A stretch of DNA of 35,289 nucleotides from UHGV virus genome UHGV-0114939. The stretch is one strand, 5' to 3'. A program made the position numbers and the translations under genes. Below the pieces are notes generated by a model, which worked only from the letters and a program-made list of their open reading frames with translations, was not told the DNA's origin and did not search any database. Positions 14,204-34,333 of the stretch are shown in pieces (within the stretch, counting starts at the first letter, position 1; every line of letters begins with the position of its first letter). This DNA is from a virus.

Positions 14204-14537
14204 GAGAACCTCCCGCTACAGTTGCGCCCATGTCATTAACCATGCTTTGCCATATCTCACGCCCGACGTCAGTCAATCCGTCCTTAGTGACGCAACGATC
14301 AAGAAGCTCGATCCCCACGGTTTCCCACTGCGGGTAGAACACTTTCATGGCTGCCAGTGTGTAGCTATCGATCAGGCTGCGAACGCCTTTTACTCCATTG
14401 ACGATTTCCACGCGGACGGCCTCGCCGTCCGCATCAACCATGAAATAGTCCCCGCCGCTGGTGGAGGTAATGTGGTTATACAGTGCCGACGCATACTTAT
14501 TTGCCAGCGCATTCAGTCGGAAATTTTTAGTAATCAT
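14196..14537 (-). CDS. hypothetical protein
   Basis: ATG at 14537 with GAGGA RBS; 113 aa. Confidence 0.6.
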   Translation of the reverse strand: MITKNFRLNALANKYASALYNHITSTSGGDYFMVDADGEAVRVEIVNGVKGVRSLIDSYTLAAMKVFYPQWETVGIELLDRCVTKDGLTDVGREIWQSMVNDMGATVAGGSHA

Positions 14538-14547
14538 GGTTCCATCC

Positions 14548-15150
14548 TCAGTGCGTCACTGGTTCCGCTGGCATGCCGTTTTCATTCAGTTCAGCTATAA
14601 AGCTGTTGTGAAGTTCAGCAAGCGTTTCACGACCAAATGGAGTCAGTGCTCCTTGTTCCACATCCATCATGGCTCTGTAGAAAATGATGGCGCGTTCTGT
14701 GCCAGACTCGATGCCAAAACGTTCTATCATCGCGCCCTCAATGTTGTTTGCCATAGCGAGGCGCTCTGCTACTGGATACAGCGGCATGGCGACGATGCCG
14801 TTGGAATAAACAGCCACTTCGGAAGGGTTGCCAGTATCATCAATGATGCTGACAGTGCCGTTTTCCTCTCTCATTTCCAGCATGAATACTGTTGCGATCA
14901 GCCATCTCCACATAATGACGTTATGCTGTGATGTGTAATCGAAATATCCCTGGTTGCCGCCATCGGCTATAGCGAGATGTATTGACATACCTTCATCTGG
15001 TTTATCGTCATAATCCCCGGCATCCAGACGATTTACGGCATCAATATATGAGACGGCCTCAACGCGTTCTGTCATGCCATCGTTGCTGCGGTACATGATG
15101 TTTACGCCGTCAGGCGTTGCTTCTGTATGGAAAGTTAAGAAATTATTCAT
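14548..15150 (-). CDS. hypothetical protein
   Basis: Start moved to the internal ATG at 15150 (Met36 of the track ORF), giving an 8-nt overlap with the upstream gene instead of a 113-nt overlap. Confidence 0.55.
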   Translation of the reverse strand: MNNFLTFHTEATPDGVNIMYRSNDGMTERVEAVSYIDAVNRLDAGDYDDKPDEGMSIHLAIADGGNQGYFDYTSQHNVIMWRWLIATVFMLEMREENGTVSIIDDTGNPSEVAVYSNGIVAMPLYPVAERLAMANNIEGAMIERFGIESGTERAIIFYRAMMDVEQGALTPFGRETLAELHNSFIAELNENGMPAEPVTH

Positions 15151-15364
15151 GTTTCGCCTCGCCTGAATGATTCTGTAACTCATATTTGCCCAACAATTCG
15201 TCTGCTTCCTGAATAGCTTCTGGTACGCCATTGAGCAGTGACATAACCGCGCCAATCATTAACTTGTCTCTGTTGCTGGGGCTGGCCCCTTCAAGCCAGA
15301 ACCCTAAAACAGTCTGAACCTGTTCGATGCGACATTGTGCTTCAATGAGCTGGATGTTGGTCAT
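15143..15364 (-). CDS. hypothetical small protein
   Basis: ATG at 15364 with GGAGAG RBS; ATGA overlap with the upstream gene. Confidence 0.55.
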   Translation of the reverse strand: MTNIQLIEAQCRIEQVQTVLGFWLEGASPSNRDKLMIGAVMSLLNGVPEAIQEADELLGKYELQNHSGEAKHE

Positions 15365-15624
15365 TTCGCACTCTCCGCATCGATTAAACTGATATCTATC
15401 AGAGAGGTAACTTTTTGTAGCCAGCTAGTGATTACTGTCGCCTGTTCCCCTCCCACCGATGGAAGAATCTCATTCATCACATGAACCAGACCTGTGCGCG
15501 CCCTGGTAAGCCGTTCAGTCGTGCGATCTGCAAGAGTGAATGTGTCTGGATATGGCTCTTCACGGCTCAGCAATGATTCAATTTCCAGCTCACACGGATG
15601 ACGATAAATTAAGTTGATATTCAT
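15361..15624 (-). CDS. hypothetical small protein
   Basis: ATG at 15624; ATGA overlap with the upstream gene. Confidence 0.55.
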   Translation of the reverse strand: MNINLIYRHPCELEIESLLSREEPYPDTFTLADRTTERLTRARTGLVHVMNEILPSVGGEQATVITSWLQKVTSLIDISLIDAESAK

Positions 15625-15815
15625 TTTTCACCACCAAGAATTACCAGCTCTGCACGAGCATCGTTAACCAAAGATGAGCACGCTTTAATCGCATCCACGA
15701 CATCAGCAGCGTCCATTTCTTCAGCCGAAAGACTGACAGCAACCAGGACAGCCGCTGCTTGCTCGATTAATTGAAGTGCGGACGTAAGTCGAGGGGCATT
15801 AATTGAGTTATTCAT
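15621..15815 (-). CDS. hypothetical small protein
   Basis: Internal ATG at 15815 (Met20 of the track ORF) preceded by a GGGGG-type RBS. Confidence 0.45.
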   Translation of the reverse strand: MNNSINAPRLTSALQLIEQAAAVLVAVSLSAEEMDAADVVDAIKACSSLVNDARAELVILGGEK

Positions 15816-16836
15816 TGGTTGCCCCCGTTTTTCCTGGCATTTCGCCACCTTCCAGCAGGAAATGAACGTCACGAACGGCGAGATCCAATATCGCGAGTAA
15901 CGCCTTCAGTCTTTCGTCTCGTGAGGGAGAGTTGCTCACCAGAATGTCGTTAATCACTTCTGTCAGTGTGATGATCTGGCTTGTGCGTTCGAGGGGATCC
16001 ATATGCACATCGTAGGTTTTAATCATGTGCCACCTCCATGCGGATACGACCAGCAAAAAAGCAGACGTGATCGCGCACCAGAGAACGGCGAGCATCGCGT
16101 TCAGACTCGGCAGCAATATGATGAATTTTGGCGGTAATTGTCGGGCAATCGCGGCGAACTGCGGCGATAATCCAGATAAATTGCGGTTTTTGGGTAGGGG
16201 TAGTAGCCAGCATGTGGCAGCCTCCTTGATTGATGGTTTATAGCCACCGCCGGAGGTCCTAAGCTCGCTGGCGGTGGACTGTACAGGGTTAGGACTACTG
16301 GCAATCAAGGAAACCAGCCTGACCGAAGTCAGCCCCATACAGCCCACCATTGATAAGGTGTGCGTGTGCGCCGATACAAAAAAAGACGCTGGCGCGTCAT
16401 GTATCGCCTCGATTGCCTGCGGGGTCCTAATCCCGGCACCCGTTTTATGAGGTGCCTTATAACCATAAACCGTGTTGCCGCATAACGGCAAGCTCTTTTT
16501 TATGGACTCCGAAAACTCAGTATTGGAAGCACCAGATGCACAGTACATCGCGCTCATTTCGTTAACGTCACGCACGTGGACGAATGTTTTTGTGGAGTCA
16601 CTACACGAGCGGAAGACATCATCTACGACCAGAAATTTTCTGGCGCAGCCGCTGACCTTCTCAATGCTAATATCATCGCCCGAGATTTCTGGTATGGTTA
16701 AGGCATCCGTTCCGGCCACCAGCAAATGATAAACTTTGCTTGTATCTGCTGTATTAATGCCTGACTTTGCCGTCATATTTCTGGATTTTGGCGACATACC
16801 AGCCAGTGAAAATGTCTTCTTCTGGATGGGTATCAT
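15808..16836 (-). CDS. hypothetical protein (342-codon open frame; may be composite)
   Basis: ATG at 16836 with GGAGGT RBS and ATGA overlap with the upstream gene, so the start is credible. Internal ORFs with strong RBS at 16213 and 16026, and GC-rich hairpins at 16245-16277, leave the true extent uncertain. Confidence 0.4.
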
Positions 16837-17012
16837 TGGTTAACCTCCGCGAACTCCTTCATGAAACGCGCCAGCGGTTGTACGCATGGCGATTGATACC
16901 CGTCGCGATAAAACGTCACTCGGTTGTGAGACACGCTTTCGACAGTAACGAGTGCTCCGTGGGCATCTTTGTAGCGTTTTTGAGGTTGTGGTGTTCCTGT
17001 CGGCTTAAACAT
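16833..17012 (-). CDS. small conserved prophage protein (DUF4222-like?)
   Basis: Internal ATG at 17012 (Met30 of the track ORF) with GGAGG RBS; 8-nt overlap with the upstream gene; MFKPTGTPQPQKRYKDAHGALVTVESV... Confidence 0.45.
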   Translation of the reverse strand: MFKPTGTPQPQKRYKDAHGALVTVESVSHNRVTFYRDGYQSPCVQPLARFMKEFAEVNQ

Positions 17013-17838
17013 GGACCGCCTCCAGACGCTTGGCGAGCCAGCGTTGCGACAGGCGGGTGAGTTCTCCTTTACGCTGCTCATATTCCATGCCCATATCAAT
17101 TAACGTGATATTGGTGCTTTCGAGATATGAGAGGTGCTCAAGCTGTTCTGCGTTCATATGGTCGCGAGGTTCGCCAGAATAGCCATTTATCCGCGCCCAC
17201 TGTTTAGCAGTTAGCCCACCAAGAACGATACGAGAAATCATATTGCTCTCGTTTGTGTAGTGGTGTTGCTGCGTCGTTTTACCCATCTCGGCACGGGCCA
17301 TATTCAGCGCATCGCACATTGGCTTAAAGTTGTTTGCGGCACTGATACGGGCTTTTAGCTGGCGACGATAGCGGGCGGCGATTTCAGGCACGCTACGCTG
17401 TAATTCTTCCTCGCACTGGATGAAATAACGGCGGATAGCGCGCCCCTGATCATTGCGTTCGATCATTGCCAGTTCTTTCGCCATTCCGACACTTAACAGA
17501 TAGTCTTTGCCGGGTCTGCCAGACTGCTTAATCTTGCTGTAAGCCGCGTCATTCGGGCTTTTCCCCAAATTTGGGGAAATTGTTTTATGGACTGAGTAAT
17601 CGTGCCCAATGGTGAAGTCATATTCAGAGATGCGATCAGTGATCCATGTAGAGAAGTCTTTTCCCACGCCCAACGCTTTGTGTAACGCTTTTGCGCTAAC
17701 AATATTGGTTTCACGCCCACCGATATGACCAGGAATAACCGGGACAATTGCGGCAAATTCATTACCGTTAATTGTGCCCAGAGAGGCGTTCAGATGAGGG
17801 GCGGCCTCAGAAATTAATCTGCTTTTTTCGATGTTCAT
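17005..17838 (-). CDS. phage antirepressor-like protein (AntA/Rha-type N-terminus with KilAC-like C-terminus)
   Basis: ATG at 17838 with GGAGA RBS. Motifs VSAKALHKALGVGKDFSTWITDRI and DYLLSVGMAKELAMI are typical of antirepressor families. Confidence 0.6.
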   Translation of the reverse strand: MNIEKSRLISEAAPHLNASLGTINGNEFAAIVPVIPGHIGGRETNIVSAKALHKALGVGKDFSTWITDRISEYDFTIGHDYSVHKTISPNLGKSPNDAAYSKIKQSGRPGKDYLLSVGMAKELAMIERNDQGRAIRRYFIQCEEELQRSVPEIAARYRRQLKARISAANNFKPMCDALNMARAEMGKTTQQHHYTNESNMISRIVLGGLTAKQWARINGYSGEPRDHMNAEQLEHLSYLESTNITLIDMGMEYEQRKGELTRLSQRWLAKRLEAVHV

Positions 17839-17850
17839 TTTCAGTCTCCG

Positions 17851-18282
17851 TTAGGCGGCGTTAAACGCGTTCGGGTAGAGTTTCAGAATGTCGGCAATTT
17901 CCTGCTGAGAAAGTCCGTTGTGATCATTTATGTTCGCAAGATGGTTAACATGAGTGATCACTTTCAGAACATCACCACGGCAGGAGAAACGGTAGCGAAG
18001 GTGTGTTCCGATACCATCAGGATTCTTTTCGTCGATACGCTCCAGAGTGATTCCAAGCTGGCGTTCTAACTCTGTTGCATAGTTACGACCAGAAGACAGA
18101 CGGCAGTAGCGAAGAATGTCATTTTCTGTCCATCCCTCTATACCAGTACGCAGCATATAGACTCTGGCACGATGCTTTTTCGGTGTGCGCTTTGGTGCTT
18201 GAAGGGATTTTGTCAGGGGCGTAACATCAGATACGCGAATATCTGAATTAGCCGCCTGTAATGGGCGGTTTTTCTTTTCCAT
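17851..18282 (-). CDS. hypothetical protein (P4-like island regulatory region)
   Basis: ATG at 18282 with GAGGTGG RBS; overlaps the AlpA stop. Confidence 0.55.
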   Translation of the reverse strand: MEKKNRPLQAANSDIRVSDVTPLTKSLQAPKRTPKKHRARVYMLRTGIEGWTENDILRYCRLSSGRNYATELERQLGITLERIDEKNPDGIGTHLRYRFSCRGDVLKVITHVNHLANINDHNGLSQQEIADILKLYPNAFNAA

Positions 18283-18485
18283 CAGGCCACCTCGTCTCTA
18301 GATTCTAATATACACTTCTCAATCCATTCATCTATTTCAGACTCAACAAAAGCAATTGCCCGACTTCCAATTTTTACCTGTTTAGGGAACCTCCCCTGAC
18401 TAATAAGACGATAAATCCATGCTTTGCTATAACCAGTTCGCCTTTGAACTTCAGAGAGACGAATTAATGAATTGTAATTAGCCAT
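18282..18485 (-). CDS. alpA: AlpA-family phage transcriptional regulator / excisionase-like HTH protein
   Basis: 67 aa: MANYNSLIRLSEVQRRTGYSKAWIYRLISQGRFPKQVKIGSRAIAFVESEIDEWI, the typical AlpA signature. Confidence 0.8.
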   Translation of the reverse strand: MANYNSLIRLSEVQRRTGYSKAWIYRLISQGRFPKQVKIGSRAIAFVESEIDEWIEKCILESRDEVA

Positions 18486-18912
18486 TTATTAATATCCTGT
18501 ACTAATGACGCAATAACCCCCTCCTGCAACGAATGGCGAGAGTTTTATTTGCGTCAAATGTCGAATACGCCAAAGACCACAATATGAAAAACATATTGCG
18601 GTCTTTTATAAAAGATAGTCAGATTGTTTTGGTTTGTTTGCTCCACAAGGGTAGAGCTACCCTGCATTTCGGCAGGATCACGCTATTAGGCGTGACATCC
18701 AGTAGTTTTAAAGAACAATTGCGCTTTGTCAGCGCCAAAGCCTGTTAAAGAACATTCCGCTTTTCAGCAGCGTAGAAGGCTCAATACACCTTCGTTTATA
18801 AAAGAGCGATTGCCCTTCTCCAGGGCTAACTGTTAAATAGCAATCCTCTGTGAGTTTTTATCAATCTACTCCCCTATACTTTAGTAAACCTCTGTATACT
18901 TGTCCAGTTGTT

Positions 18913-20127
18913 TCATGCGTGTTTTTCAAACACCATATGCACCACATTTCCGCCATGCTCGAGAGAATCCATATAGTCGGCATACCATTGAAGCATCTCC
19001 CGCCGTCCATCCAGATATTGCGCATGGTTGTATGTGCCACGAATTGAGTTCTTATCAACGTGAGCGAGCTGCGTTTCTATCCACGCGGTGTTATAGCCCT
19101 GCTCATGCAAAATCGTGCTCATAGTGTGTCGGAACCCATGACCAGTTACACGTCCAGCGTAGCCAATGCGCTTAAACACTTGGTTTATGCTGGCCTCACT
19201 CATTGTTTTCCTTGGATCATTGCGCCCGGGAAACATAAGAGGGTAATTGCCTGTTATTTCTCTAATCTTCCCAATAAGCGAAAGAGCCTGCTCAGACAAT
19301 GGCACAATATGAGGCCGCCGCATTTTCATACGTGAAGCGGGTATCTCCCATATAGCCTTGTTGAAATCAATTTCATCCCATAATGCGCCACGTAGTTCGC
19401 CAGTTCGCAAGCCGGTGATAATCAGTAGACGAGCCGCCATAACAACCAATGCGCTTCCTGAGTAACTGGACAATGCCTTGAAAAAATCAGGTAATTCTTT
19501 GGTCGTAAGGAAAGGGTAATGATTAGATTCATGGCCTTGCATCGCGCTAGTAAGGTCTGGTGCAGGGTTATACTCTGCGCGACCAGTGACTATTGCATAA
19601 CGGAAAACTTCCCCGCACCGCTGCCTCACTTTTTTGGCTTTTTCTGTCGCACCGCGCCCCTCGATGCGCCGCAGCACATTCAGAAGTTCAAGTGGTTTGA
19701 TTTCGGCGATTGGTTTTTTGCCAATGTAAGGGAACACATCTTTGTTGAAGGCTTCGAGGATGTCTGAAGCATAACCAGCAGACCATTTTTTTAATTTGCT
19801 GCTGTGCCACTCAAGGGCAATATCTTTGAAGGTGTTGTTTAACTGCGTTTCCCGGGCAATCTTTTCCTCTCGTTTCGCTTCCATCGGATCGATACCACCA
19901 GCGATACCTCTTTTCGCATCTTCTCGTTTTGCCCGAGCATCGGCTAGAGTAACCTCAGGATACACACCTAGTGCCAATAGCTTCTCTTTACCAGCTACAC
20001 GATATTTAAGTCGCCAGTATTTACCTCCATTAGGTTTTACCAAGAGATACAAACCGCCACCATCGGCCAGCTTGTAAGCCTTCTCTTTTGGCTTGGCTGT
20101 GTCTATTTGACGGGCATTGAGTTTCAC
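18913..20127 (-). CDS. P4-type tyrosine integrase
   Basis: GTG start at 20127 with GGAGGT RBS. N-terminal arm-binding signature LADGGGLYLLVKPNGGKYWRLKYR; C-terminal catalytic HGFRHT and Tyr region RGTYNHAQY. Lies next to the tRNA-derived att core. Confidence 0.9.
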   Translation of the reverse strand: MKLNARQIDTAKPKEKAYKLADGGGLYLLVKPNGGKYWRLKYRVAGKEKLLALGVYPEVTLADARAKREDAKRGIAGGIDPMEAKREEKIARETQLNNTFKDIALEWHSSKLKKWSAGYASDILEAFNKDVFPYIGKKPIAEIKPLELLNVLRRIEGRGATEKAKKVRQRCGEVFRYAIVTGRAEYNPAPDLTSAMQGHESNHYPFLTTKELPDFFKALSSYSGSALVVMAARLLIITGLRTGELRGALWDEIDFNKAIWEIPASRMKMRRPHIVPLSEQALSLIGKIREITGNYPLMFPGRNDPRKTMSEASINQVFKRIGYAGRVTGHGFRHTMSTILHEQGYNTAWIETQLAHVDKNSIRGTYNHAQYLDGRREMLQWYADYMDSLEHGGNVVHMVFEKHA

Positions 20128-20199
20128 TTGGGGGTACCTCCACTAAACCGAACAGCAAATACCCCCATAAGTACCCCCATCTGACCGTAGATTTTGAGG

Positions 20200-20275
20200 G
20201 ACTTTAGTAGACGTCAAAAGACGAACGGGGCTTTAATACGTGGATTATAAGGGGTTTTGAAAGACTTTAGTAGAC
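20200..20275. repeat. 13-bp direct repeat GACTTTAGTAGAC x2 (20200-20212, 20263-20275), candidate integrase arm-type sites
   Basis: Exact direct repeats between the integrase start and the att core. Confidence 0.35.
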
Positions 20276-20292: not shown

Positions 20293-20328
20293 TGGTGCCG
20301 ATAATAGGAGTCGAACCTACGACCTTCG
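20293..20328 (-). other. att core, copy 1: identical to the 3' end of tRNA-Thr(CGU), including CCA
   Basis: Minus strand reads CGAAGGTCGTAGGTTCGACTCCTATTATCGGCACCA. A 14-nt tRNA 5' fragment GAGCAGCGCATTCG lies at 20372-20385, separated by a 41-nt hairpin-containing insert; no intact acceptor stem, so not a functional tRNA. Confidence 0.6.
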
Positions 20329-20443
20329 ATTCCAATGACGTGTTTCACAAGTCATTGATTCTTCGAACCGAATGCGCTGCTCCTGAAAGGCAAAACTGAC
20401 ACAACTGATCACGGTTGCCCCTGAATATTAGATCGGGGGAAAG

Positions 20444-21646
20444 ATGAAATACAAGCCTAATGCGTACCTTGTTAAAGAAAACTCGTCGGTATACTCCGTC
20501 AAGGTCACTATTCCGCCTTATATGCGTTCCCTTTTTGGGAATCGAACAGCATTCATGCGTACAACAGGCACGGCAGATATCAGGGAAGCCCGAATCATTC
20601 GTGACAAAGTCATGCACGAGTTTTTTGCTATCAGAGACAGACTCAAGCCAAAACCACAACGTAACAGTGTTGATCGCGTCCTGGTGGAACTGCGCTCTAT
20701 CAACCAGCATGTAAGCCAAAATGATGGGATAGACTTCGCCACGGCTCGTGTGTGTCCCTCCCTTGTCCAACTGCGGGATGAATTTATTGTCCAACACAAT
20801 GACAGGCGCAAGCTGTCTACCTTGAGCAAGTACATTAAGGCGGTGGAGGTCTTCACGGCTCATTTCCGGCGTAAGGATTTCCAGTTGCAGGAAATCAACA
20901 GGACTATGGTCACCGATTGGTTAGACAGCGCCAAGCAGGAGAAAGCCAGCCAGACACTGGCGAATTATCTTGGCTGTCTGTCCCAACTAGTGGCACTGGC
21001 TCAGAACCGTTATCACGATGCGCCGAAAGAGAATGTATTCGCGGGCCACAAACTGGACGTGCGCCATGATCGAGAAAGCTACGAACCCTTTAGCGGGGAT
21101 GAACTAGCTAAGGTGTATGCGGTGCTTGATGAAGAGATGAAAGCCGTTGCGATGGTGGGAATGTATAGCGGTATGCGCCTTAACGAAATCTGCTCTCTGC
21201 AAATCAGCAATATCAAAACCGTTGAGGGGGTATGGTGTTTCGAGGTGACGGAGGGTAAGACACGCAATGCGGCTCGCCTGGTTCCAATTCATAGCCGATT
21301 GACGACACTCGTTAAAGACCTCATCCAGAACAACCACAATGGCTTCTTATTCTACCATGCCAGCATCACAGAACGTGCAGACGGCAAGCGCTCAACGTGG
21401 CATACACAGCGATTTACACGGGCTAAACGTAAAGCGTTGGCTGAGAAAGGCACTGAGCGGAAGGTGTTTCATAGTCTGCGGGGAATGTTCATCAGCCAGC
21501 TTGATCGTGGTGGAGTCCCAGAGGACAGGATCGCATTGATTGTGGGTCATGAGCGCGGGAAAACCGAATCATTCCGCACCTATAGCCAAGGGGCTAGCAT
21601 GAAGGAGTTGGCGGATTATGTAGACATTGTCTCACATAGCATATAA
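20444..21646 (+). CDS. tyrosine integrase (site-specific recombinase)
   Basis: ATG at 20444 with GGGGGA RBS. Catalytic-region motifs HSLRGMF and RTYSQG. Diverges from the att core, opposite the element A integrase. Confidence 0.85.
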   Translation: MKYKPNAYLVKENSSVYSVKVTIPPYMRSLFGNRTAFMRTTGTADIREARIIRDKVMHEFFAIRDRLKPKPQRNSVDRVLVELRSINQHVSQNDGIDFATARVCPSLVQLRDEFIVQHNDRRKLSTLSKYIKAVEVFTAHFRRKDFQLQEINRTMVTDWLDSAKQEKASQTLANYLGCLSQLVALAQNRYHDAPKENVFAGHKLDVRHDRESYEPFSGDELAKVYAVLDEEMKAVAMVGMYSGMRLNEICSLQISNIKTVEGVWCFEVTEGKTRNAARLVPIHSRLTTLVKDLIQNNHNGFLFYHASITERADGKRSTWHTQRFTRAKRKALAEKGTERKVFHSLRGMFISQLDRGGVPEDRIALIVGHERGKTESFRTYSQGASMKELADYVDIVSHSI

Positions 21647-21792
21647 AAGTAAAACACACCATAAAAACAGCCAAAAAAAAACAATAGTTATAACTTAATA
21701 AAATTTAATGCTAATTAATTCAAATCATTATCATCTCGCTTCATTTTTTATTTATTTGGAAATATATTGATACAAAAAAGGACGGATTGACT

Positions 21793-22434
21793 ATGACTCA
21801 GCGAATTCAGCAGATCCAACGTATCGTGGAACAGCAAGGAATCACTCAACTGGTACATTTCACTAAGGCCGAAAATCTTCCAAGTATAATGGAACATGGG
21901 ATAGTCCCGATTTCTCGGATTGGAGAGTTTGGTATCACGCCTGCCACTAATGATCAACTTCGCCTTGATGGTCATTTAGATGGTACGTCTCTTTCTATCA
22001 CCTTTCCTAATCACAGAATGTTCTACAAATATAGGCTGGAAAATCAAGGGGTTGATTGGGTGGTGTTAGGTATAAAACCATCTATTCTATGGACAAAGGA
22101 TTGCGCGTTTTGTCGCCACAATGCTGCGGATGCTCGAATAAGCGTCAAGGCATTGGATGATTTGAGGCTTCCTGAATCACTTGCGGGAATGTTTAGCGAG
22201 ATAGACGGGTATGAAACACGAGATGGTCAAAAACTTTTAACATCCGATCCAACAGACGAACAAGCAGAAGTGTTAGTTTTTGATGTAATTGAACCTGAAC
22301 TGATCTTAGGGGCGGCCTTCAATAGCAGAACCGCAAACACACTTTACCAAAATCTCTTCGGAGAAAAAAAGATTATACTTAATGACAAAACCAATGGTTT
22401 ATTTGGTTCTCGTTCATTTAAGCGTAAGTGGTAA
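21793..22434 (+). CDS. DarT-like (DUF4433) DNA ADP-ribosyltransferase toxin candidate
   Basis: Track start at 21787 is TTG; ATG at 21793. N-terminal LVHFTKAENLPSIMEHG and C-terminal DEQAEVLVFD match the DarT hallmarks H-F-T...NL.SI..G and QAE-hLV (from memory). Lower GC than flanks. Confidence 0.65.
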   Translation: MTQRIQQIQRIVEQQGITQLVHFTKAENLPSIMEHGIVPISRIGEFGITPATNDQLRLDGHLDGTSLSITFPNHRMFYKYRLENQGVDWVVLGIKPSILWTKDCAFCRHNAADARISVKALDDLRLPESLAGMFSEIDGYETRDGQKLLTSDPTDEQAEVLVFDVIEPELILGAAFNSRTANTLYQNLFGEKKIILNDKTNGLFGSRSFKRKW

Positions 22435-22438
22435 AACA

Positions 22439-23146
22439 ATGGCACAAAGGCCCGTATATATACCTGTTAAAGAAAAATCACTCTTCGTAAAAACTGAGCT
22501 TGTAGATTTTACGTGGTTCCCGGGAATGTCAGTCTCACAAAAGCAGAAATCAATTGACTCGCTCCATGAAGCAGCAAAGACAAGCCTGCCTAATGTGGAC
22601 AAAATCCTTGAGATTTCCAGCAAGTCCCGTGAAACCCTCGGTGTTGCACTGAGTGCTTTCAACCTTTCTTTCACGACCCTGAAACAGCAACGTACATTAA
22701 CTATCGAAAGTGCGTTTCAAGGTAGCAAAGTGTTCCAACGTGGGGGTCCATATACCGACATGTTCGACATGACTCCTCGCGAAGCCAAAAAGGACAAGCG
22801 TTTATTGACCTCTGGCAGACTGACCGGATTCAAATTTTTTGGTAAAGAATGGGAACTGGAGCCACGTACTGCATTTTATGATTGGCTGTATATAAGTGCA
22901 TTGAAAAAAAGTACCGAGCTAGCAGAGCAACTAATTGAATATTCAGCATTTACTGACATAGAGTTCAATCCTGAGCGCTCGATAAATTGCCAAGCATATT
23001 CTGCGGCATTATATGTTTCATTATACAAACAAGGCATTCTTGATGATGCCATTGCATCTAAAGAGAGTTTCCTAGAAACGATCAAAAGTGCATCAATAAG
23101 TAATGCTCTTCAAGATGAAACAACTCAATCGGGCTTTGGGTTTTGA
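22439..23146 (+). CDS. hypothetical protein, cognate partner of the DarT-like gene (no macrodomain or NADAR signature seen)
   Basis: ATG at 22439, 4 nt after the DarT-like stop. 235 aa lacking the Gly-rich loops of macrodomains and the NADAR motifs. Confidence 0.6.
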   Translation: MAQRPVYIPVKEKSLFVKTELVDFTWFPGMSVSQKQKSIDSLHEAAKTSLPNVDKILEISSKSRETLGVALSAFNLSFTTLKQQRTLTIESAFQGSKVFQRGGPYTDMFDMTPREAKKDKRLLTSGRLTGFKFFGKEWELEPRTAFYDWLYISALKKSTELAEQLIEYSAFTDIEFNPERSINCQAYSAALYVSLYKQGILDDAIASKESFLETIKSASISNALQDETTQSGFGF

Positions 23147-23148
23147 AA

Positions 23149-23165
23149 GCCGGGATTAACCCGGC
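23149..23165. terminator. hairpin GCCGGG-ATTAA-CCCGGC between convergent genes (putative bidirectional terminator)
   Basis: Perfect 6-bp stem directly after the stops of 22439..23146 (+) and 23167..23373 (-). Confidence 0.4.
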
Positions 23166-23166
23166 C

Positions 23167-23373
23167 TCAATGTTTCAGTTTAATCTTTCGATGCTGCTCA
23201 TAATGAGCAAGTGCTGATTCCCAACCGTAATCATTCACCCGCTGCAAAAAAGTGCTGCGTGGAACGTCGAAATATCTCGCAATGGCTGACAGATTCAACC
23301 AGTTATCGGATTGATTATCAAGACTCATTGCCAGAAGTGGCAGACCTTTAGAATTGAACAGTTTCATGTGCAT
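23167..23373 (-). CDS. small helix-turn-helix protein
   Basis: ATG at 23373 preceded by AAGGAAAGGAGAT. HTH-like LSAIARYFDVPRSTFLQRV. Confidence 0.5.
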   Translation of the reverse strand: MHMKLFNSKGLPLLAMSLDNQSDNWLNLSAIARYFDVPRSTFLQRVNDYGWESALAHYEQHRKIKLKH

Positions 23374-23437
23374 GTGTGTATCTCCTTTCCTTTGCCTCGC
23401 CTGGCAGCGGGAGCAATGCGCTCCCGCAAACCGCTTT

Positions 23438-24478
23438 TTATGCTGTTGGTAATAGCGTCATCTTACAGACCAGATCCGGCCTGAAGTTGTATGCCATGAG
23501 GCTGTATTCACTATATAAATTCCGATTTCGTAACTCGTCGAAAGCTCTGTATGCGTACCAATCTTCAACATCACCAGAAGCGGAGATTTCAAGATGGCGA
23601 GCACATGGACCAATGAAGCGTCCCATAGGCAAACTCTGCTCAACCGGAGCATTTCCAAAGACCGGAACAAGGAAAGCCTCGTTTGACTTGATACCGCTGA
23701 ATGCTGAATCGCTGACTTCGATCAGACGCACAGAACCCAGCATAAACGAACTAAAGCCTGGCAGAACATCAGACGGGAACAGCACATCAGAACCAACCAG
23801 CCCGTTTGAATAAACTAGCAATTCACGAATCTGAGGAGAATATCTCACAGCACGGTAGGCATCAGATCCGCACAGCAGAACCCAACCACGCAGATATTGA
23901 GTTAGTCCACCCATCAGCGCTTTAGTGGCGCTAACCTGATCGTCAATGTCGCGCATCGGGTCATCATTCACACCTTGGTGCAAATCAGCGGTTCGCTGGT
24001 TCAGGGAGAATTCTACAGCCCAATCGATCTCATTTTGCTGAGTACCCCAAGCGTTAACTTTATTGAAAATCAAAGCCTGCCAATAGGCATATTCACGTGA
24101 GCGCTCAAACTTGGCACGCATCTGAATAAACTTGTTGGCCTCAATCTCATCAAGAGACTGCTCCATAGTGCTGCCAGGTTTACGGTAACCTTTGAGATCT
24201 GCCGAAGTCACACGGTCAGTCACACCAGACCAAGGCAATTCGTATAAATACGAGCCTGCTGTCGGCTTCTCGATAGTCCCCCACTCCGAACTGAAACGCA
24301 TCAATGGCGCATCCACACCAATAGATGCCTCTTGGATACGATCCATACTAACTTTGTGGGAATCTGCGATCTGACGGTCTGCAAATACATCAAGGTGAGT
24401 CAGCAGTAAATTGCTCTGCGGAACCTGAGTACGGAAGACCTTGCTGTAATTAACATAATCGAATGATTTAATAGCCAT
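23438..24478 (-). CDS. major capsid protein, lambda gpE-like
   Basis: 346 aa (lambda gpE is 341) directly downstream of a gpD-like gene; C-terminal architecture loosely parallels gpE. Distant similarity judged by eye only. Confidence 0.55.
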   Translation of the reverse strand: MAIKSFDYVNYSKVFRTQVPQSNLLLTHLDVFADRQIADSHKVSMDRIQEASIGVDAPLMRFSSEWGTIEKPTAGSYLYELPWSGVTDRVTSADLKGYRKPGSTMEQSLDEIEANKFIQMRAKFERSREYAYWQALIFNKVNAWGTQQNEIDWAVEFSLNQRTADLHQGVNDDPMRDIDDQVSATKALMGGLTQYLRGWVLLCGSDAYRAVRYSPQIRELLVYSNGLVGSDVLFPSDVLPGFSSFMLGSVRLIEVSDSAFSGIKSNEAFLVPVFGNAPVEQSLPMGRFIGPCARHLEISASGDVEDWYAYRAFDELRNRNLYSEYSLMAYNFRPDLVCKMTLLPTA

Positions 24479-24501
24479 TTTTGAAGTCCTTTTCTTGTTT
24501 G

Positions 24502-24852
24502 TTATTCTGCGATGACAGCATCGTCAGAGGTCAGGCGAATGTTTCCGTTGGCGGTCAATGCTGCTAGTGCTGCATTTGTTGCTGAACCCATTACGGCGCG
24601 GATTGCTTCTGGGTACACATAAATTAGGCGGTCAGCCACGATGACAGGAACATCAGAACCTGCCTCAGCGTAGGAGAGGCACAGAAGCGCATCAGTCCCA
24701 GAGGTGTAAAGCGTTCCGGTAGAGGTCACCACGGAACCTGGTTCCACAGCCTGTACGAGTGTCGCGAATACAATCGTTCTGCGGTCAAAATTGGCATATG
24801 CCGAATTTTTCACCACGTTGTTATACGTTTTTGGATAATCTTCCAGTTTCAT
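24502..24852 (-). CDS. head decoration protein, lambda gpD-like
   Basis: 116 aa; ATG at 24852 with GGAGAT RBS. LIYVYPEAIRAV resembles the gpD region EDVLWPEAAS. Precedes the capsid gene as D precedes E in lambda. Confidence 0.55.
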   Translation of the reverse strand: MKLEDYPKTYNNVVKNSAYANFDRRTIVFATLVQAVEPGSVVTSTGTLYTSGTDALLCLSYAEAGSDVPVIVADRLIYVYPEAIRAVMGSATNAALAALTANGNIRLTSDDAVIAE

Positions 24853-25494
24853 AGTCTTGAATCTCCATTCAGGTCATCGCCAATGATGGCGTTATTATTT
24901 CTCTGGCAAATTTGCCATTGAGGGGCGAAAAGAAAGCCGCTATCAGCGACTTCGTTCACTTCGTTTTCCATACAGAAAAAGACCAAGGCGAGAATATCCC
25001 GCCTGGTGTAGGTCAGTAGTTTTCTGATGGAGAGATTTGGAAAGCATGAGTGTGTTCACGCTTCAGGAATAAGGAGGCGGCAACGCTCCAAAGAATGGGT
25101 AAGGAGACCCAAAAACGTTGCCACCTGATGCCGTTAGTGTCCGGCTGACAGCCTTCCGAGGATGAAAGGGCTTTGGCAAATCTCCGATCCAAGGTCGGAG
25201 AAAATTCTTTTCTGATACAGCCAGCGGCTATGGCTTCACCTTCCCGTGAGAGAGTGCGGATTATTGGCTGTATGAGAAAAGGCCCGCACGGTATTCACAC
25301 AGGCACTTTATATTTCGTAAGAGAAGGAATGACAACGGCTGTTGTACGCACATACAATTTAAATCATCACCCTATGCAATTATTTTAACACGAATGATTA
25401 TCATTTGCAACAACAAAAACAATAACATGGCGAATTTAACGGCCCTCTCTCGTGTGGGCCAATTTACTACGTCATTTTTGACGGAACGATGATT

Positions 25495-27636
25495 TTAGTC
25501 CGCAATCCCAAGGATGAGGTTATTCTGCGCCTGGTTGTTTTCCCTTATCTTGGTATCAACCAGCCCTGCGATCTTATCGTCATGGACAAACACATCCATC
25601 TGCTGATTAATGTTCGCTTGCCCGGTAACACTGACAGGAATCGGCTGTCGCTGCGTCATGCTATCAATTGTCGGAACCGTGAACGTTGGTTGCTGGGGTG
25701 TTAGATAGTTCAGGCCAGGAACATTCAACGCTAGCGCTGGAACGTTATACGCCGTGCCTGAGCCGATACTGCTCGAAGCGGAACTATTCAGCCACGGGTA
25801 AATCTGTTTCAGAGTCTGACCGATGCTACGTGGATCAAAGCCGGTCTTTTCCTTAATCCAATCGGCAGCACCGTTTGCGGAGTCATCTACCACGCTCGTA
25901 TAAACCGCATCCGGCAATGTCGCGCCTTTCTTGAGTTCTTCACCAACTCGACCAGCGAAGGAGAGAATGTTGGTGGTTAGCTCACCAAGGGCAACGCCGA
26001 GGGAATCGGAAATTGGGATCAGTCCAGTCATATTCTGACGTAGAGTGTCAGTATTGGCAGCGTACTGCCCCAGGCCTTCAACAAACGAGGCTGAGAAGTG
26101 ATCCGCAAGGCTGGTTTGTACTCGGTTGTACTCAGCCCCCAAAGCTGCCAGCTTATCAAGGTTGGCCTGCTGTGCATCAGATAGCGTCCATCCTTCAGAA
26201 GCGAGTTGATGCATACGCTGGATAAGTCCCTGCCCCTCATCATTGAACACTTCGAGGAAGACCGAACCATCATTTACAGCCTCAGCCAAGTGCCGGGTCT
26301 GGTTGTTCGTCCATTTGAAAGTTTTCTGCAACTGTTTCAGGTAAGTGATGAAGGTCGGAAAATCCAGCTTTTGCAGTTCTCCGATCACCTTCTGTGCTAC
26401 CTTCTGGTTGCCGTTGGTGGAGGTCAGCACGTTGTTGATGATATCTGCGAACTCGCCACCGCCGCTGAAATTCACCTGTCCAGTTTTCTTGTTACGTTTG
26501 AAAGAGCCGGTGTTCAGCAATTCCCCGGCCTTTTCGGTTGTGTCCTTGTTGAGGTCAGCCAGCTTGTCAGCACTCAGTGAGTAACCAACACGGCTCATTG
26601 ATAGATCCTGAAGTGCTGCAAACTCAAGGTTGCTGATCCCATACTGCTGGAGTTTTTTCACATCGCGAGAACGCTCAAGGCTTCCCTGAAGGGTCTGACC
26701 AACACGAGAAACGCCCATACTACCTACTAACGCCGCACCACCAATAACACCAGCGGCAGCAAGACCTACACTCCCACCACGGCTTTCTGTGCGTACACGA
26801 CCAGCACGAACACCTGCGGTTTTCTGCTCACGGGTAGTACGTTGTTGCAAACGAGCCTGCTTGCGTAATTCTGTGGTGATACGAGCCATTTCGAAGCGGG
26901 TCTCTTCGACCGTATAGCGCTCTTCTTTCTGGGCTTTGAGTGCCTCTTTTGCTGCACTGATCGCTTTATAACGGGTTGCAACGCCAGCGCCGTTCACGTT
27001 TGCCAGAGTCAGAGCGCTACGGCGCAAACTGTTGTAATAAGTCACATCGCGCTTAAGGCCTGCCTCTTTCTCACGCTGACGCTTTTCCTCCAGGGCCATC
27101 GCCTTTTTGGTGGCTGCGATGTCAGCAGCAACAGCGCCGTGACCACGGTTCATTGCTTCAGTCTGGCGAGAAACAAGACCGGGATCGTAATGTTGACCGC
27201 CCATGTTGGGGTTGTAGGTCATCGCGCGGGAGCGACTCGCCTGTCTCACCTTTTCAGATATTGCTGCTAAACGGGCATTCTGACGTGCTGCCTGTTCCTG
27301 TTGGGATAACTGGCGAGCCTGTAATGAGGTCATTTTATTGGCGTGGGCGATTGCGTCCCGCTCCATTTTGGCTTGTATCTGAGCTTGTTTCTGTTGCTGT
27401 TTTGACAATTGTTCAGCCTGTCGAAGTTTCGCAGTCTGGGCTTTCGCTGCTGCTAGTGCTGCTTTGCCTTCACTCTGGGCGGTACGCTTCTGTGCCTTCT
27501 CAAGCGCTTTAGCGGGTTTCTCGTGAGCAGCCTTAAGCGAAATTATCTTCTTTTTGGCTTTTTGATATGAGGCATCGTCTGTGATCCACGAGATTTCATT
27601 AACGGTGCTGGTAACAATCTTATTGGTCCCACTCAT
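25495..27636 (-). CDS. tape-measure-like protein (coiled coil, Ala/Gln-rich, internal hydrophobic Gly-rich segment)
   Basis: 713 aa; ATG at 27636 overlaps the upstream stop (TAATG). Segment GSVGLAAAGVIGGAALVGSMGV and long A/Q/K-rich helices are typical of tape-measure proteins. Confidence 0.5.
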   Translation of the reverse strand: MSGTNKIVTSTVNEISWITDDASYQKAKKKIISLKAAHEKPAKALEKAQKRTAQSEGKAALAAAKAQTAKLRQAEQLSKQQQKQAQIQAKMERDAIAHANKMTSLQARQLSQQEQAARQNARLAAISEKVRQASRSRAMTYNPNMGGQHYDPGLVSRQTEAMNRGHGAVAADIAATKKAMALEEKRQREKEAGLKRDVTYYNSLRRSALTLANVNGAGVATRYKAISAAKEALKAQKEERYTVEETRFEMARITTELRKQARLQQRTTREQKTAGVRAGRVRTESRGGSVGLAAAGVIGGAALVGSMGVSRVGQTLQGSLERSRDVKKLQQYGISNLEFAALQDLSMSRVGYSLSADKLADLNKDTTEKAGELLNTGSFKRNKKTGQVNFSGGGEFADIINNVLTSTNGNQKVAQKVIGELQKLDFPTFITYLKQLQKTFKWTNNQTRHLAEAVNDGSVFLEVFNDEGQGLIQRMHQLASEGWTLSDAQQANLDKLAALGAEYNRVQTSLADHFSASFVEGLGQYAANTDTLRQNMTGLIPISDSLGVALGELTTNILSFAGRVGEELKKGATLPDAVYTSVVDDSANGAADWIKEKTGFDPRSIGQTLKQIYPWLNSSASSSIGSGTAYNVPALALNVPGLNYLTPQQPTFTVPTIDSMTQRQPIPVSVTGQANINQQMDVFVHDDKIAGLVDTKIRENNQAQNNLILGIAD

Positions 27637-27959
27637 TACACCCCCTGCTGCTTGATGATATTGCCGTATCGATCAGGATCGGATTTTGCGAGAGCAGCAG
27701 CCGCTGCTTTAGCCTTCGCCAGTATTTCAGGATCGATATGGTCAGCGGTATGTGAGACAACCGAACGACTATCAGCACCCAACGATTTTTTAATCCGTTT
27801 GGTGGGGGTGTCAGACGAGGCTGATTTGAGCAACTCCGGATGTTGATCTAGAAAGTTATCGGTGACGCTCTTCAGATTGTCCCGCGCTTTTTGGAGTTCG
27901 TATTCCTCCGGTGTCATGCCATGCATGGCGGCGAAAATCCGGTCTTTTATTGTGGTCAT
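27636..27959 (-). CDS. hypothetical protein (possible tail assembly chaperone by position)
   Basis: 107 aa; ATG at 27959; immediately precedes the tape-measure-like gene. Confidence 0.45.
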   Translation of the reverse strand: MTTIKDRIFAAMHGMTPEEYELQKARDNLKSVTDNFLDQHPELLKSASSDTPTKRIKKSLGADSRSVVSHTADHIDPEILAKAKAAAAALAKSDPDRYGNIIKQQGV

Positions 27960-28073
27960 TTTTATAGTATCTCCAGAGAAGGATGCTCCCGCCGATCAGG
28001 ACGTGACGAAGCGCCACCCAGATCCAAAGCAGGAAAAAGATGTAATCAAAGTTCATTGGCTCCCGATGTGGGA

Positions 28074-28547
28074 TTATTTGGATTTACGTTTAGTGCGCTT
28101 CTTCTTCACTGTCGGCAGCTTGCAGATATTCGCGAACACGTCTGGGTAGTAACCCAACATTTCAGCGTCAGTGATCCCGGCGTTATGCAGGTAATATCGA
28201 AGGCTGACGTATGACAGACCATCGCAACGCTTGCGGATCTGTTCCGGGTGCATCCGATGTGACCACATTTCACGGACAAATTCTGTCCGGGCTCTCGGTG
28301 TCATCATCGCCCAGGTCACCGCTTGTTTTTGACGTGCGAGCCGCCAGACTTCAGCGAACGGCAGATCTAGGGTATTAGCGACAATATGCGGTGAAAATCC
28401 ACGATTAAGCAATAAACGGGCTTTGCGTTGTGTTTCCGGATCGGAAGGTTTGGATCGGGATTTATATGTCGGTTTCTCCAGAATGGAGAACAGGCGGGAT
28501 AGCTGGATTTCTTCTTCGGCGCTCAGGCCGTTGGCAACATCACACAA
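28074..28547 (-). CDS. hypothetical protein with HTH-like region
   Basis: TTG start at 28547 with strong GGAGGA RBS 5 nt upstream; basic C-terminus KKKRTKRKSK. Confidence 0.5.
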   Translation of the reverse strand: MCDVANGLSAEEEIQLSRLFSILEKPTYKSRSKPSDPETQRKARLLLNRGFSPHIVANTLDLPFAEVWRLARQKQAVTWAMMTPRARTEFVREMWSHRMHPEQIRKRCDGLSYVSLRYYLHNAGITDAEMLGYYPDVFANICKLPTVKKKRTKRKSK

Positions 28548-28562
28548 TTATTCCTCCAATTG

Positions 28563-29474
28563 CTAAAACGGTTCGTCATCATTAAATTCAAGCTGCTCAT
28601 CCTCTTGCTGCTGCGGGGTATTAGTAGCCTGTTTCGCTTCGGTTGCTCTTCGCGCCTGCTGCTGTTTGTAATAAGCATCAGGACCGGATGAAGTATCGTT
28701 AGCGGCAGACCTCGATCCTTTGTATCCATCGCTCTGGATGATTCTGATATGGCTCTTTATCAGATCTGTTATCGCACCAGGTTTTTCTATCCCCCACATC
28801 GCACCATAGGCCATAAATCCTTCATCGTCGTAGCCTTCTACCCAGTTGTTGAGGGTATCGATATCTGCCATCTGGGGCTGGTCTGGGCTTTTGACTGTTG
28901 GGAATTGGATTGCATTTCCACCATTCACCGCATCATCACCACCGGATAGATCAGCATCGACAGGAACACCCACAGGAGGTACGCCGTCTCGCTTTCCAGC
29001 ACCGCCCTGATCAGATTCGCCATCACCTTTTTTCTCCTCGTTTTTTGGCTGTTGACTAGATTTTCCTAAGCGTTTCTCATGGTCATACATTGGTTCTCCA
29101 GCCCACTCTGGGTAGGAAAACTCCAGATTTCCAGCGACCTTATCAACATCGATCACTTTATAAATATTGCAACGCCCGACCTTTCCAGTGATTTCAACTA
29201 GACCAAGAGCGATCAGCTTATCGATCTGAGGCTTTGTTTTCTTCTTGGCGTCACCGATTCGAGCAACGGTCCCTAGACGCTCCTGCGACTCAGCAAATGG
29301 CTGTTTCAAGCCTTTCCGATAACGGTACTGATTAAGCATATAAGCGTATAATTTTTCTAGTGAATTGCTAATCTCAACCACTTCACCAGTGGATTTATTT
29401 GTAACCGTGTCTGCATGGAAAAGGCGATTCTCGCTCTTGTAAAAACGCTCATTGGTGTTTCCGTTCTGGCTCAT
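28563..29474 (-). CDS. hypothetical protein, possible winged-helix replication initiator-like N-terminus, acidic C-terminus
   Basis: ATG at 29474 with GGGAGAA RBS. N-terminal LEKLYAYMLNQYRYRKGLKQPFAESQERLGTVARIGDAKKKTKPQIDKLIALGLVEI resembles the lambda O N-domain style wHTH (weak, by eye). Confidence 0.45.
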   Translation of the reverse strand: MSQNGNTNERFYKSENRLFHADTVTNKSTGEVVEISNSLEKLYAYMLNQYRYRKGLKQPFAESQERLGTVARIGDAKKKTKPQIDKLIALGLVEITGKVGRCNIYKVIDVDKVAGNLEFSYPEWAGEPMYDHEKRLGKSSQQPKNEEKKGDGESDQGGAGKRDGVPPVGVPVDADLSGGDDAVNGGNAIQFPTVKSPDQPQMADIDTLNNWVEGYDDEGFMAYGAMWGIEKPGAITDLIKSHIRIIQSDGYKGSRSAANDTSSGPDAYYKQQQARRATEAKQATNTPQQQEDEQLEFNDDEPF

Positions 29475-29637
29475 GTTGTTCTCCCTGTGGGTTCGTCAGT
29501 GGTTGTTCATTGCGTTTCTGAATGTGTTTCGCCAGGTTCTGGCACATGTTCCGGATCATCCTGGGAACCGGCATCCCGAGGCGGTCAGATTCCTCGCGTA
29601 AAATTGCATATGTTTCATCGTCTAAAGATAGTTTCAT
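29449..29637 (-). CDS. putative ribbon-helix-helix DNA-binding protein
   Basis: ATG at 29637 with GGGGGGAA RBS. MKLSLDDETYAILREESDRLGMPVPRMIRNM has an RHH-like strand-helix pattern. Overlaps the start of 28563..29474 by 26 nt. Confidence 0.4.
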   Translation of the reverse strand: MKLSLDDETYAILREESDRLGMPVPRMIRNMCQNLAKHIQKRNEQPLTNPQGEQHEPERKHQ

Positions 29638-29765
29638 CTCAAGTTCCCCCCGAATGCATAAAGGTTATCGCCCCTGCGATCACGGTGGCGATCAGGGGTA
29701 AGGAGTCGTGTTTGCGGCGATTTCGTTTGGTGGCGTTGCTGCCAACGGAGTAATGCAGAGAATGG

Positions 29766-30194
29766 TTATTCGGTTGTGGTCAGTTCGGGAATGGCTTTTC
29801 CGATAATGCCTTCGAGTTCACCGCCAGACTCAATCATCTTAAGCAGAAGGATCTGCTCATTCATCAGACCGATGCCATGAGAGGCGTAATAGACACGCCA
29901 GGCAGACAGCACTGGTTCAATGATTTCCATAACATCACGGCCTTTTGCCAACTCTGCTGAGTACGGTTTAAGAATATCCCGGATGATTTTTGCGTCTTTC
30001 GCTTGCTGACGCAGGCGTTTAATGATGTTCAGTGCTTCGCGAGTAGCTGGATAGAGCTTATCGGCTTTCTTGGCACCACCCATACGAGTACGGAAGGCGT
30101 GAAGGTTTTGAGCTGTGGTAATTTTTGCATCGATTGCAGCGACAATCTCTGAGGCAGTGGCGTTCGAGAAATCGAACAGAACAGGTTTCCCCAT
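29766..30194 (-). CDS. hypothetical protein, first gene of the leftward operon
   Basis: ATG at 30194 with AGGAGAG RBS; 142 aa. Confidence 0.55.
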   Translation of the reverse strand: MGKPVLFDFSNATASEIVAAIDAKITTAQNLHAFRTRMGGAKKADKLYPATREALNIIKRLRQQAKDAKIIRDILKPYSAELAKGRDVMEIIEPVLSAWRVYYASHGIGLMNEQILLLKMIESGGELEGIIGKAIPELTTTE

Positions 30195-30825
30195 GTATCT
30201 CTCCTATTTAAGTTATTGTTTAGTCATAAAATCATCTCAGTTGATAATATATATTTTATAGTAAATTAGTTTATTTGTCAACCGATTTCTCATTTAATTG
30301 ATGAAGTAATTGATGTGTTTTTTGTCAATACCCCGCAACTTTATACACAGACCTTTTCTTTGTCAAGCCCCCTAACCACAAAGCGCTCTCAGACGCTTAA
30401 GATTCAACGCTGTAAGCGAAGCGGTACAAAGTCACCAGCAATAGGAGAAAGACGCTCTGAAGGAGACAGGGAGCGTTACAGGGCCGCTTGCATCATGGCA
30501 TCGCCACCGAGAATCACAGGGCCGTTATAGCCTTGTGAGATTGAGGGGGGACCGCCGCCCCCAGGGGGGGAGTGTACGTCGCGTTGCAAGCTCCTCTGCG
30601 CCGTGCTCGATCCACATTGACTGACGCGCCTCGCGGCTTGTCTTCCACACATATCTGAAGTGGCAGAGCCATTCAGAGCAGAGCGATACAGAAGCATCAC
30701 TCCTTAACACCAACAATTGAACGCATGTTCAACCAGTCTTTGACCCGTCTTTAGATCTTGACCTTAAGTCTTACATGGCTTTAAAAGTCTTTATGGGTTT
30801 TATAATCTTATTAAAAAAGTCTTTT

Positions 30826-30947
30826 TAGTGGGGTGTTTTTACCCCCATTACTGGCACTCTATAGGGGTATATTTACCCACATACCAAAATTCAATAGGGG
30901 TGTATTTACCTACATTCAAATTCCTATAGGGGTATTTTTACCCCCAT
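30826..30947. repeat. four 23-bp iterons (GGGGT-N6-ACCCC type) at 32-34 bp spacing; putative replication origin of element B
   Basis: TAGTGGGGTGTTTTTACCCCCAT (30826), TATAGGGGTATATTTACCCACAT (30860), AATAGGGGTGTATTTACCTACAT (30893), TATAGGGGTATTTTTACCCCCAT (30925). Confidence 0.55.
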
Positions 30948-32498: not shown

Positions 32499-32589
32499 GT
32501 GAAAATAATACTGAGTTGAATTATGTTGTGGTTAATTAATGCAAAATGAAGGCAGGAATAAGTTCCCACCTTCACAATAAGTAGTCGTA

Positions 32590-34289: not shown

Positions 34290-34333
34290 GTGCCGATAAT
34301 AGGAGTCGAACCTACGACCTTCGCATTACGAAT
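34290..34333 (-). other. att core, copy 2: 44 bp identical to tRNA-Thr from the anticodon loop to the acceptor stem (no CCA)
   Basis: Minus strand reads ATTCGTAATGCGAAGGTCGTAGGTTCGACTCCTATTATCGGCAC. Shares 34 bp with copy 1; flanks are not tRNA sequence. Confidence 0.6.

Follow-up and report, generated by a model that had tools for sequence, protein, structure and literature searches.

A probable DarTG1 (DarT1-NADAR) pair carried beside the integrase of a tRNA-Thr-integrating element

The viral genome UHGV-0114939, analysed over its whole stretch of 35,289 nucleotides (nt; hereafter “the window”), contains two adjacent plus-strand genes that very probably constitute a canonical two-gene DarTG1 (DarT1-NADAR) toxin-antitoxin/anti-phage defence module. 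The first gene, darT1 (21793..22434, +), has an ATG start and encodes a 213-amino acid (aa) protein assigned to the DarT1 (guanine-specific) subfamily of DNA ADP-ribosyltransferase toxins. The second gene (22439..23146, +), which also has an ATG start, encodes a 235-aa DarT1-associated NADAR antitoxin (DarG1), an ADP-ribosyl-guanine glycohydrolase by homology. The assignment is based on matches to the families PF14487 and PF22397, the closest solved structures, conserved catalytic residues, and the same gene order in public contigs. Family membership, the catalytic residues, the operon architecture and the mobile-element context can all be read directly at this locus. The original prediction, made from the DNA letters, had described a DarT-like toxin with a partner devoid of macrodomain and NADAR features, and had proposed an undescribed toxin-neutraliser or anti-phage pair carried as cargo beside an integrase. 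The proposal of a toxin-neutraliser or anti-phage pair in that position stands; the pair is not undescribed, because the partner is a DarT1-associated NADAR.

Evidence that the first gene encodes a DarT/DUF4433-like ADP-ribosyltransferase, as had been predicted, came from profile and structure-database searches. The protein matches PF14487 (DarT) with 69.1 bits against a cutoff of 22.5 bits (E 5.7e-19), toxin residues 22-192 aligning to profile positions 2-186 of 201. When all PDB sequences were searched at E<=0.01, the sole match was DarT1 of Escherichia coli C7 (8BAQ/8BAR/8BAS; E 1.6e-34), with no DarT2 structure among the matches; among solved structures, the toxin is closer to DarT1 than to DarT2. 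Identity to 8BAQ is 38.3% over 183 aligned positions, inside the range of 35-40% reported between DarT1 orthologues (PMC11543638). Both motifs quoted in the original prediction are present, with LVHFTKAENLPSIMEHG at residues 20-36 and DEQAEVLVFD at residues 155-164.

Additional evidence for membership in the DarT1 subfamily came from the active site. The set of C7 DarT1 residues mapped onto the toxin consists of those found to be essential or conserved in an earlier study (PMC11543638). Toxin residues H22, F23, R57 and D59 are identical to the aligned C7 residues H17, F18, R52 and D54; S68, M76, F77, K79 and Y80 are identical to S63, M71, F72, K74 and Y75; and N110, Q157 and E159 are identical to N104, Q150 and E152. 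The exception is C7 R35, which contacts the NAD phosphate and aligns to toxin I40, with an arginine (R42) two residues further along. The toxin carries the marks that separate DarT1 from DarT2, namely a guanine-coordinating asparagine where DarT2 has histidine, an extra catalytic aspartate, and a serine replacing the tyrosine of the H-Y-E motif. Given the conservation of Asn110 and the experiments on homologues (PMC11543638), we infer that the toxin would ADP-ribosylate the N2 position of guanine in single-stranded DNA and, by analogy, that it would be toxic when produced alone. The NCBI name of the protein is “DarT ssDNA thymidine ADP-ribosyltransferase family protein”. The word “thymidine” in this name is probably wrong for the DarT1 subfamily, since an active site with Asn110, Asp59 and Ser68 predicts guanine specificity.

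The partner matches PF22397, “DarT1-associated NADAR antitoxin”, with 313.9 bits against a 27-bit cutoff (E 5.8e-94), and the alignment runs end to end, with partner residues 2-214 on profile positions 1-211 of 212. The sole PDB match is the crystal structure of the Geobacter lovleyi NADAR, 8BAT (E 2e-96), which shares 65.7% identity with the partner over 233 aligned positions. This identity, together with established knowledge, indicates that the partner would adopt the NADAR fold. The original prediction had held that a clear NADAR fold in the partner would make the pair a canonical DarTG variant, and such a variant is how the pair is read here. Residues of the C7 NADAR were mapped onto the partner using their spacing and the 8BAT alignment. 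Partner residues E90, K97, K117 and D173 (plus E175) match C7 E88, K95, K115 and D171 (E173), with the same spacings of 7, 20, 56 and 2, and all are identical in 8BAT. In the C7 NADAR, E88, K95 and D171 are required for hydrolysis of ADP-ribosyl-guanine, and K115 is required for rescue (PMC11543638). By analogy, the partner is predicted to hydrolyse ADP-ribosyl-guanine and to rescue cells from the toxicity of DarT1.

The original prediction favoured a different model, in which the neutraliser of the DarT toxin is of a new class, outside both the macrodomains and the NADARs. The profile searches of both proteins that it had proposed returned DarT for the toxin and PF22397 for the partner; at E<=1 in Pfam, the partner matched neither the Macro domain nor the generic NADAR profile, and the only other entry was a chance match to TCRP1. 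The original prediction was therefore right to exclude a macrodomain, and the missing Macro and generic NADAR matches, together with the absence of the partner from any NCBIfam, PADLOC or PHROG family, count in favour of a new neutraliser. However, the full-length match to PF22397 and the identity to a crystallised NADAR refute this model, the catalytic residues are conserved, and the public cluster to which the partner belongs already bears the name of a DarT1-associated NADAR antitoxin, such that a new neutraliser class retains practically no probability. The DarT1-associated branch has been placed in the NADAR superfamily by structure (PMC11543638), and it is too divergent for the generic NADAR profile. 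The NADAR identity was missed in the original prediction because the subfamily escapes the generic profile, so that YbiA-type motifs would not show.

Several results weigh against the assignment of the pair to DarTG1. For the partner, these are the lack of a match to the generic NADAR profile, described above, and the lack of any match in the PADLOC v2 models. For the toxin, the NCBIfam toxin_DarT equivalog NF048013 gave 13.5 bits, far short of its 150-bit cutoff, and the PADLOC v2 DarT model PDLC02991 gave a weak match of 25.5 bits (E 2.5e-6). In addition, a simple promoter scan found no consensus sigma-70 promoter upstream of darT1. Neither protein had a significant match in NCBIfam. PHROGs gave nothing for the toxin and just a weak match of unknown function for the partner (phrog_652, E 0.019), and a tblastn search of 50,697 phage genomes with the partner gave no match at E<=1e-5. 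The NCBIfam equivalog was presumably built on thymidine-modifying, macrodomain-partnered DarT proteins (DarT2). While the model scores and the absent promoter call are adverse, they do not contradict membership in DarTG1, and instead reflect the models that each library holds. Since the PADLOC matches are weak or absent, automated defence finders from the same period would overlook or under-call the pair, and pipelines without PF22397 (those using generic NADAR/Macro profiles, NCBIfam or PADLOC v2) will go on reporting “DarT with an unknown partner”.

A pair that resembles DarTG1 could also be an inactive remnant, with a decayed toxin, or with an antitoxin that has been kept for another purpose, such as element-borne counter-defence against a host DarT1. 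There is precedent for the latter: T-even phages answer DarTG1 with orphan NADARs, known as AdfN, that act as anti-DarTG1 factors (PMC11825919), and the element that carries the pair is itself phage-related, with a capsid gene. Nonetheless, both open reading frames (ORFs) are undamaged and have the full length expected from the profiles and the solved homologues, and all catalytic residues are kept. Moreover, the identical DarT sequence occurs on 301 contigs, and the NADAR adjoins its cognate DarT1 and so is no orphan. With these observations, a remnant is very improbable, and the pair is best regarded as an intact DarTG1 module.

The arrangement of the two genes is compact. The gap between the TAA stop codon of darT1 and the ATG of the NADAR gene is 4 nt, on the same strand, in agreement with the predicted distance and with the predicted partner length of 235 aa. 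The homology of the partner to the Pfam profile and to its crystallised homologue begins exactly at the methionine encoded at 22439, and the gene coordinates in the original prediction are therefore correct. A Shine-Dalgarno-like AAGGAC lies ~10 nt before the darT1 ATG, and a listing of longest ORFs gives alternative starts at 21787 (TTG) and 22382 (ATG). Upstream lies the tyrosine integrase gene of the carrier element (20444..21646, +; phrog_1 integrase, 5.9e-38). An identical integrase gene in public contigs matches PF00589, and DNA that is 95.6% identical is found in E. coli genomes, where it is labelled “site-specific integrase”. The pair follows directly downstream of this gene, as had been predicted, and the distance from the integrase end to the darT1 start is 146 nt. 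This spacer (21647..21792, +) is AT-rich, with a guanine-cytosine (GC) content of 22.6%, and is presumed to be a promoter/operator region. The pair has a GC content of 41.6%, and thus is lower than its flanks, as claimed in the original prediction: the integrase gene has 49.8% and the capsid gene 47.4%, with 47.3% for the whole window. At the other end of the pair, a 68-aa gene (23167-23373, -) is convergent with the NADAR gene. Between the two convergent stop codons, a GC hairpin, GCCGGG-attaa-CCCGGC (23149..23165), was read from the sequence. This hairpin is a possible bidirectional terminator, judged by its sequence and position; it was not called in a terminator scan because it has no T-run.

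The pair is already known: publications from 2022-2025 describe the system together with its chemistry, structures and anti-phage role, and the proteins of the pair are named in public databases. The exact DarT sequence is present in NCBI, for example in Enterobacter hormaechei accessions, and E. coli is among the names on the DarT cluster. The 90% cluster of the partner has 131 members, one of which alone is found on 732 contigs, and is named “DarT1-associated NADAR antitoxin family protein” in NCBI/UniRef. Hosts of this cluster are Enterobacter, Klebsiella, Citrobacter, Morganella, Rahnella, Serratia and Cedecea. Plasmids from many phyla carry remoter homologues, with 48-67% identity. All public contigs that were read (24 contigs read, 6 places shown) have the exact proteins in an unchanged gene order. 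A megablast search with positions 20300-23500 of the window gave no match in 50,697 phage genomes; in 5,426 complete E. coli genomes, the same search matched the integrase part only (95.6%) and left the pair unmatched. At megablast sensitivity, complete E. coli RefSeq genomes thus lack this variant of the pair, whereas draft assemblies of Enterobacteriaceae contain it.

The pair is cargo of an integrative element of ~14.0 kb, which spans window positions 20293-34323 and integrates at a tRNA-Thr gene. The element is bounded by a perfect 34-bp direct repeat, of a kind for which no occurrence is expected by chance. The left copy of this attachment (att) repeat (20295..20328) corresponds, in reverse complement, to the 3' end of a tRNA-Thr gene and marks the left boundary of the carrier; the right copy (34290..34323) marks its right boundary. 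In thousands of E. coli genomes, matches to the att stretch fall in genes annotated as tRNA-Thr. DNA alignment of eight loci with unrelated left flanks places the onset of conservation exactly at 20293. No intact tRNA lies within the window, and further elements are therefore probably present in a tandem array.

Comparison of related elements supports the view that the pair occupies a slot for variable cargo. The slot has the integrase on one side and a conserved small minus-strand gene with the capsid gene on the other, and corresponds to positions 21647-23166 of the window. Here it holds DarTG1, and in E. coli 2016C-3878 (locus L001, 9331-10461) it holds a GNAT-like protein and two hypothetical proteins. 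In locus L009 (1203-1324), the slot is apparently empty. Unrelated small ORFs of no recognised function fill it in L010 (2523-2920), L011 (2277-2708) and L012 (8212-8853). The alternative cargoes gave no PADLOC match, and no Pfam match other than the sub-threshold GNAT. These data support variable cargo, and at most hint that the slot may be a defence hotspot.

Work on homologous pairs provides the basis for a mechanism. When produced by itself, the toxin of the E. coli C7 pair or of the G. lovleyi pair kills E. coli, and both cognate and non-cognate NADARs rescue the cells (PMC11543638). DarTG1 is a phage-defence toxin-antitoxin system that acts on phages such as RB69 by modifying phage DNA, which blocks replication, and the NADAR reverses the DNA modification (PMC11825919). 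In the mechanism proposed for the present pair, DarT1 would move ADP-ribose from NAD+ onto the exocyclic N2 of guanine in single-stranded DNA, and this ADP-ribosylation of guanine would block DNA replication. Translation of the antitoxin is probably coupled to that of the toxin, since the gap between the genes is 4 nt. The antitoxin, a single-domain NADAR glycohydrolase, would strip ADP-ribose off guanine and so keep the uninfected cell viable. Phage infection would then shift the balance towards DarT1, phage DNA would be ADP-ribosylated, and both replication and virion production would fail. The module would travel as interchangeable cargo beside the integrase of the ~14-kb tRNA-Thr-integrating element, and may also stabilise that element. 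Guanine specificity, toxicity with its rescue, and phage defence are here taken over from the C7 and G. lovleyi homologues, and by the same analogy we infer the activity, trigger and phage range of the pair.

Toxin-antitoxin pairs are classic stabilisers of mobile elements. The location of the pair inside an att-bounded mobile element, right beside the integrase, is consistent with a module that serves chiefly in addiction, stabilising the 14-kb element by post-segregational killing rather than defending against phage. Related elements have other cargo or none in the slot, which marks the module as accessory and likewise fits an addiction role. On the other hand, DarTG1 homologues have been shown to defend against phage (PMC11825919; PMC11543638). 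Moreover, the NADAR antitoxin is enzymatic and gives no sign of the instability that classical addiction would need. Addiction as the chief role is thus plausible, if rather doubtful, and since the two roles are not mutually exclusive, a defensive DarTG1 module could contribute to both.

The remainder of the carrier combines phage-related and replication genes. Next to the 68-aa gene is a major capsid gene (23438-24478, -; Phage_cap_E/phrog_29), whose product gave no tblastn match in 50,697 phage genomes. It is followed by a group of minus-strand ORFs (24502-29474), which comprises the neighbours of the capsid gene, with 116-, 713-, 107/109- and 157-aa products, and a DUF6945 protein. No Pfam family was found for the 116-, 713-, 107/109- and 157-aa products; the 713-aa product has weak tape-measure-like PHROG matches. 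The DUF6945 gene (28563-29474, -) has weak matches to replication-initiator PHROGs, and a literature search found no paper on DUF6945. Four iterons (30825-30947), each of ~24 nt and with a spacing of 32-34 nt, lie ~1.3 kb from the DUF6945 gene and are likely to be the replication origin of the carrier. Further to the right is an integrase-like ORF of 186 aa (31938-32498), directly followed by the stretch with the lowest GC content of the window, about 35% (32500-33800). This stretch includes a 211-aa ORF (33131-33766, -) and a 69-aa ORF, neither of which has a family or PADLOC match, and it possibly serves the carrier as a second region for cargo at its right end.

With a capsid gene and no terminase, portal or tail genes recognised, the carrier would appear to be satellite-like rather than an autonomous prophage. 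This leads to a tentative and, taken as a whole, unlikely proposal that the carrier represents an uncharacterised phage-satellite-like family that swaps defence or addiction cargo beside its integrase, where DarTG1 would guard both host and element against phages other than the helper. The value of the pair as a discovery is small; the carrier element with its cargo slot is the one lead worth keeping.

Other mobile units surround the carrier. A second, tandem island (11089-20127) abuts the same att site and has a P4-like satellite gene set. It includes a 404-aa integrase (18913-20127, -), and a 404-aa counterpart at the same relative position in locus L005 has the domains Arm-DNA-bind_3, Phage_int_M and Phage_integrase. 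The island also encodes an AlpA-like 67-aa protein (18282-18485), a protein with an AntA antirepressor domain, an Ash-family protein, and a 919-aa primase-helicase (Zn-ribbon, Toprim, DUF927). Two 21-nt direct repeats, TTTTGAGGGACTTTAGTAGAC (20192-20212 and 20255-20275), which are 90% alike and 63 nt apart, are found immediately to the left of the att core, in the interval that separates the divergent integrase genes; they may be arm-type integrase binding sites of this left island. Genes for P22-type DNA ejection (5158-10326, -) adjoin the P4-like module in an odd mosaic. They comprise a gp7-like gene (9194-9871), an Inj_translocase/gp20-like gene (7875-9194), and the genes for a 908-aa SLT-domain protein (5158-7884) and a DUF2824 protein (9865-10326).

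Two further units lie at the ends of the window. At the left end (770-1893, -), a SocA/Panacea-domain antitoxin-like protein of 228 aa (1207-1893) is separated by 2 nt from a 144-aa ORF (770-1204) with no Pfam or PADLOC family, and together they could form a toxin-antitoxin pair of the Panacea type, whose toxin would be unclassified; they are adjoined by a PRiA4_ORF3 protein (184-726). The stretch directly outside the right att repeat (34326-35065, -) contains a 62-aa ORF and a gene for a serine resolvase/invertase (34514-35065; Resolvase + HTH_7), which points to an additional mobile unit in the array.

Hotspots for defence cargo are a feature of phage satellites and prophages such as P4 and P2. 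The slot described here resembles those of the P4/P2 type in that variable cargo is found at a fixed position in related elements, and in this case the cargo is a known defence system. One important difference is that the carrier is not P4-like, and instead combines a capsid gene of the Phage_cap_E type with iterons and a replication-initiator-like DUF6945 gene. A second comparison is with DarTG2 (DarT2-DarG), known from Thermus aquaticus and Mycobacterium tuberculosis, whose toxin belongs to the same PF14487 superfamily. The two systems share the logic of reversible ADP-ribosylation of DNA bases for toxin-antitoxin function or defence, but the partner in the present pair has neither a macrodomain nor the DarT-binding C-terminal domain. 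The toxin also differs from DarT2, with Asn110 in place of the thymine-contacting histidine, Ser68 in place of the tyrosine of H-Y-E, and the extra catalytic Asp59; its predicted target is N2 of guanine, rather than N3 of thymine.

The AdfN proteins of T-even phages are, like the partner, ADP-ribosyl-DNA glycohydrolases of the NADAR superfamily that reverse modification by DarT1 (PMC11825919). AdfN proteins serve lytic phages as orphan counter-defence factors and cluster separately among the NADARs, whereas the partner in the present pair adjoins DarT1. The closest parallel is DarTG1 of E. coli C7 and G. lovleyi (Schuller et al. 2023, PMC11543638), which is likewise a toxin-first operon with a single-domain NADAR in second place. 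The proteins are also of similar size, with 213 and 235 aa here and 208 and 254 residues in the crystallised DarTG1 chains, the 254-residue chain aligning from residue 21. There is no architectural difference between the present pair and these systems; it is another sequence variant of DarTG1, carried in a 14-kb tRNA-Thr-integrating element.

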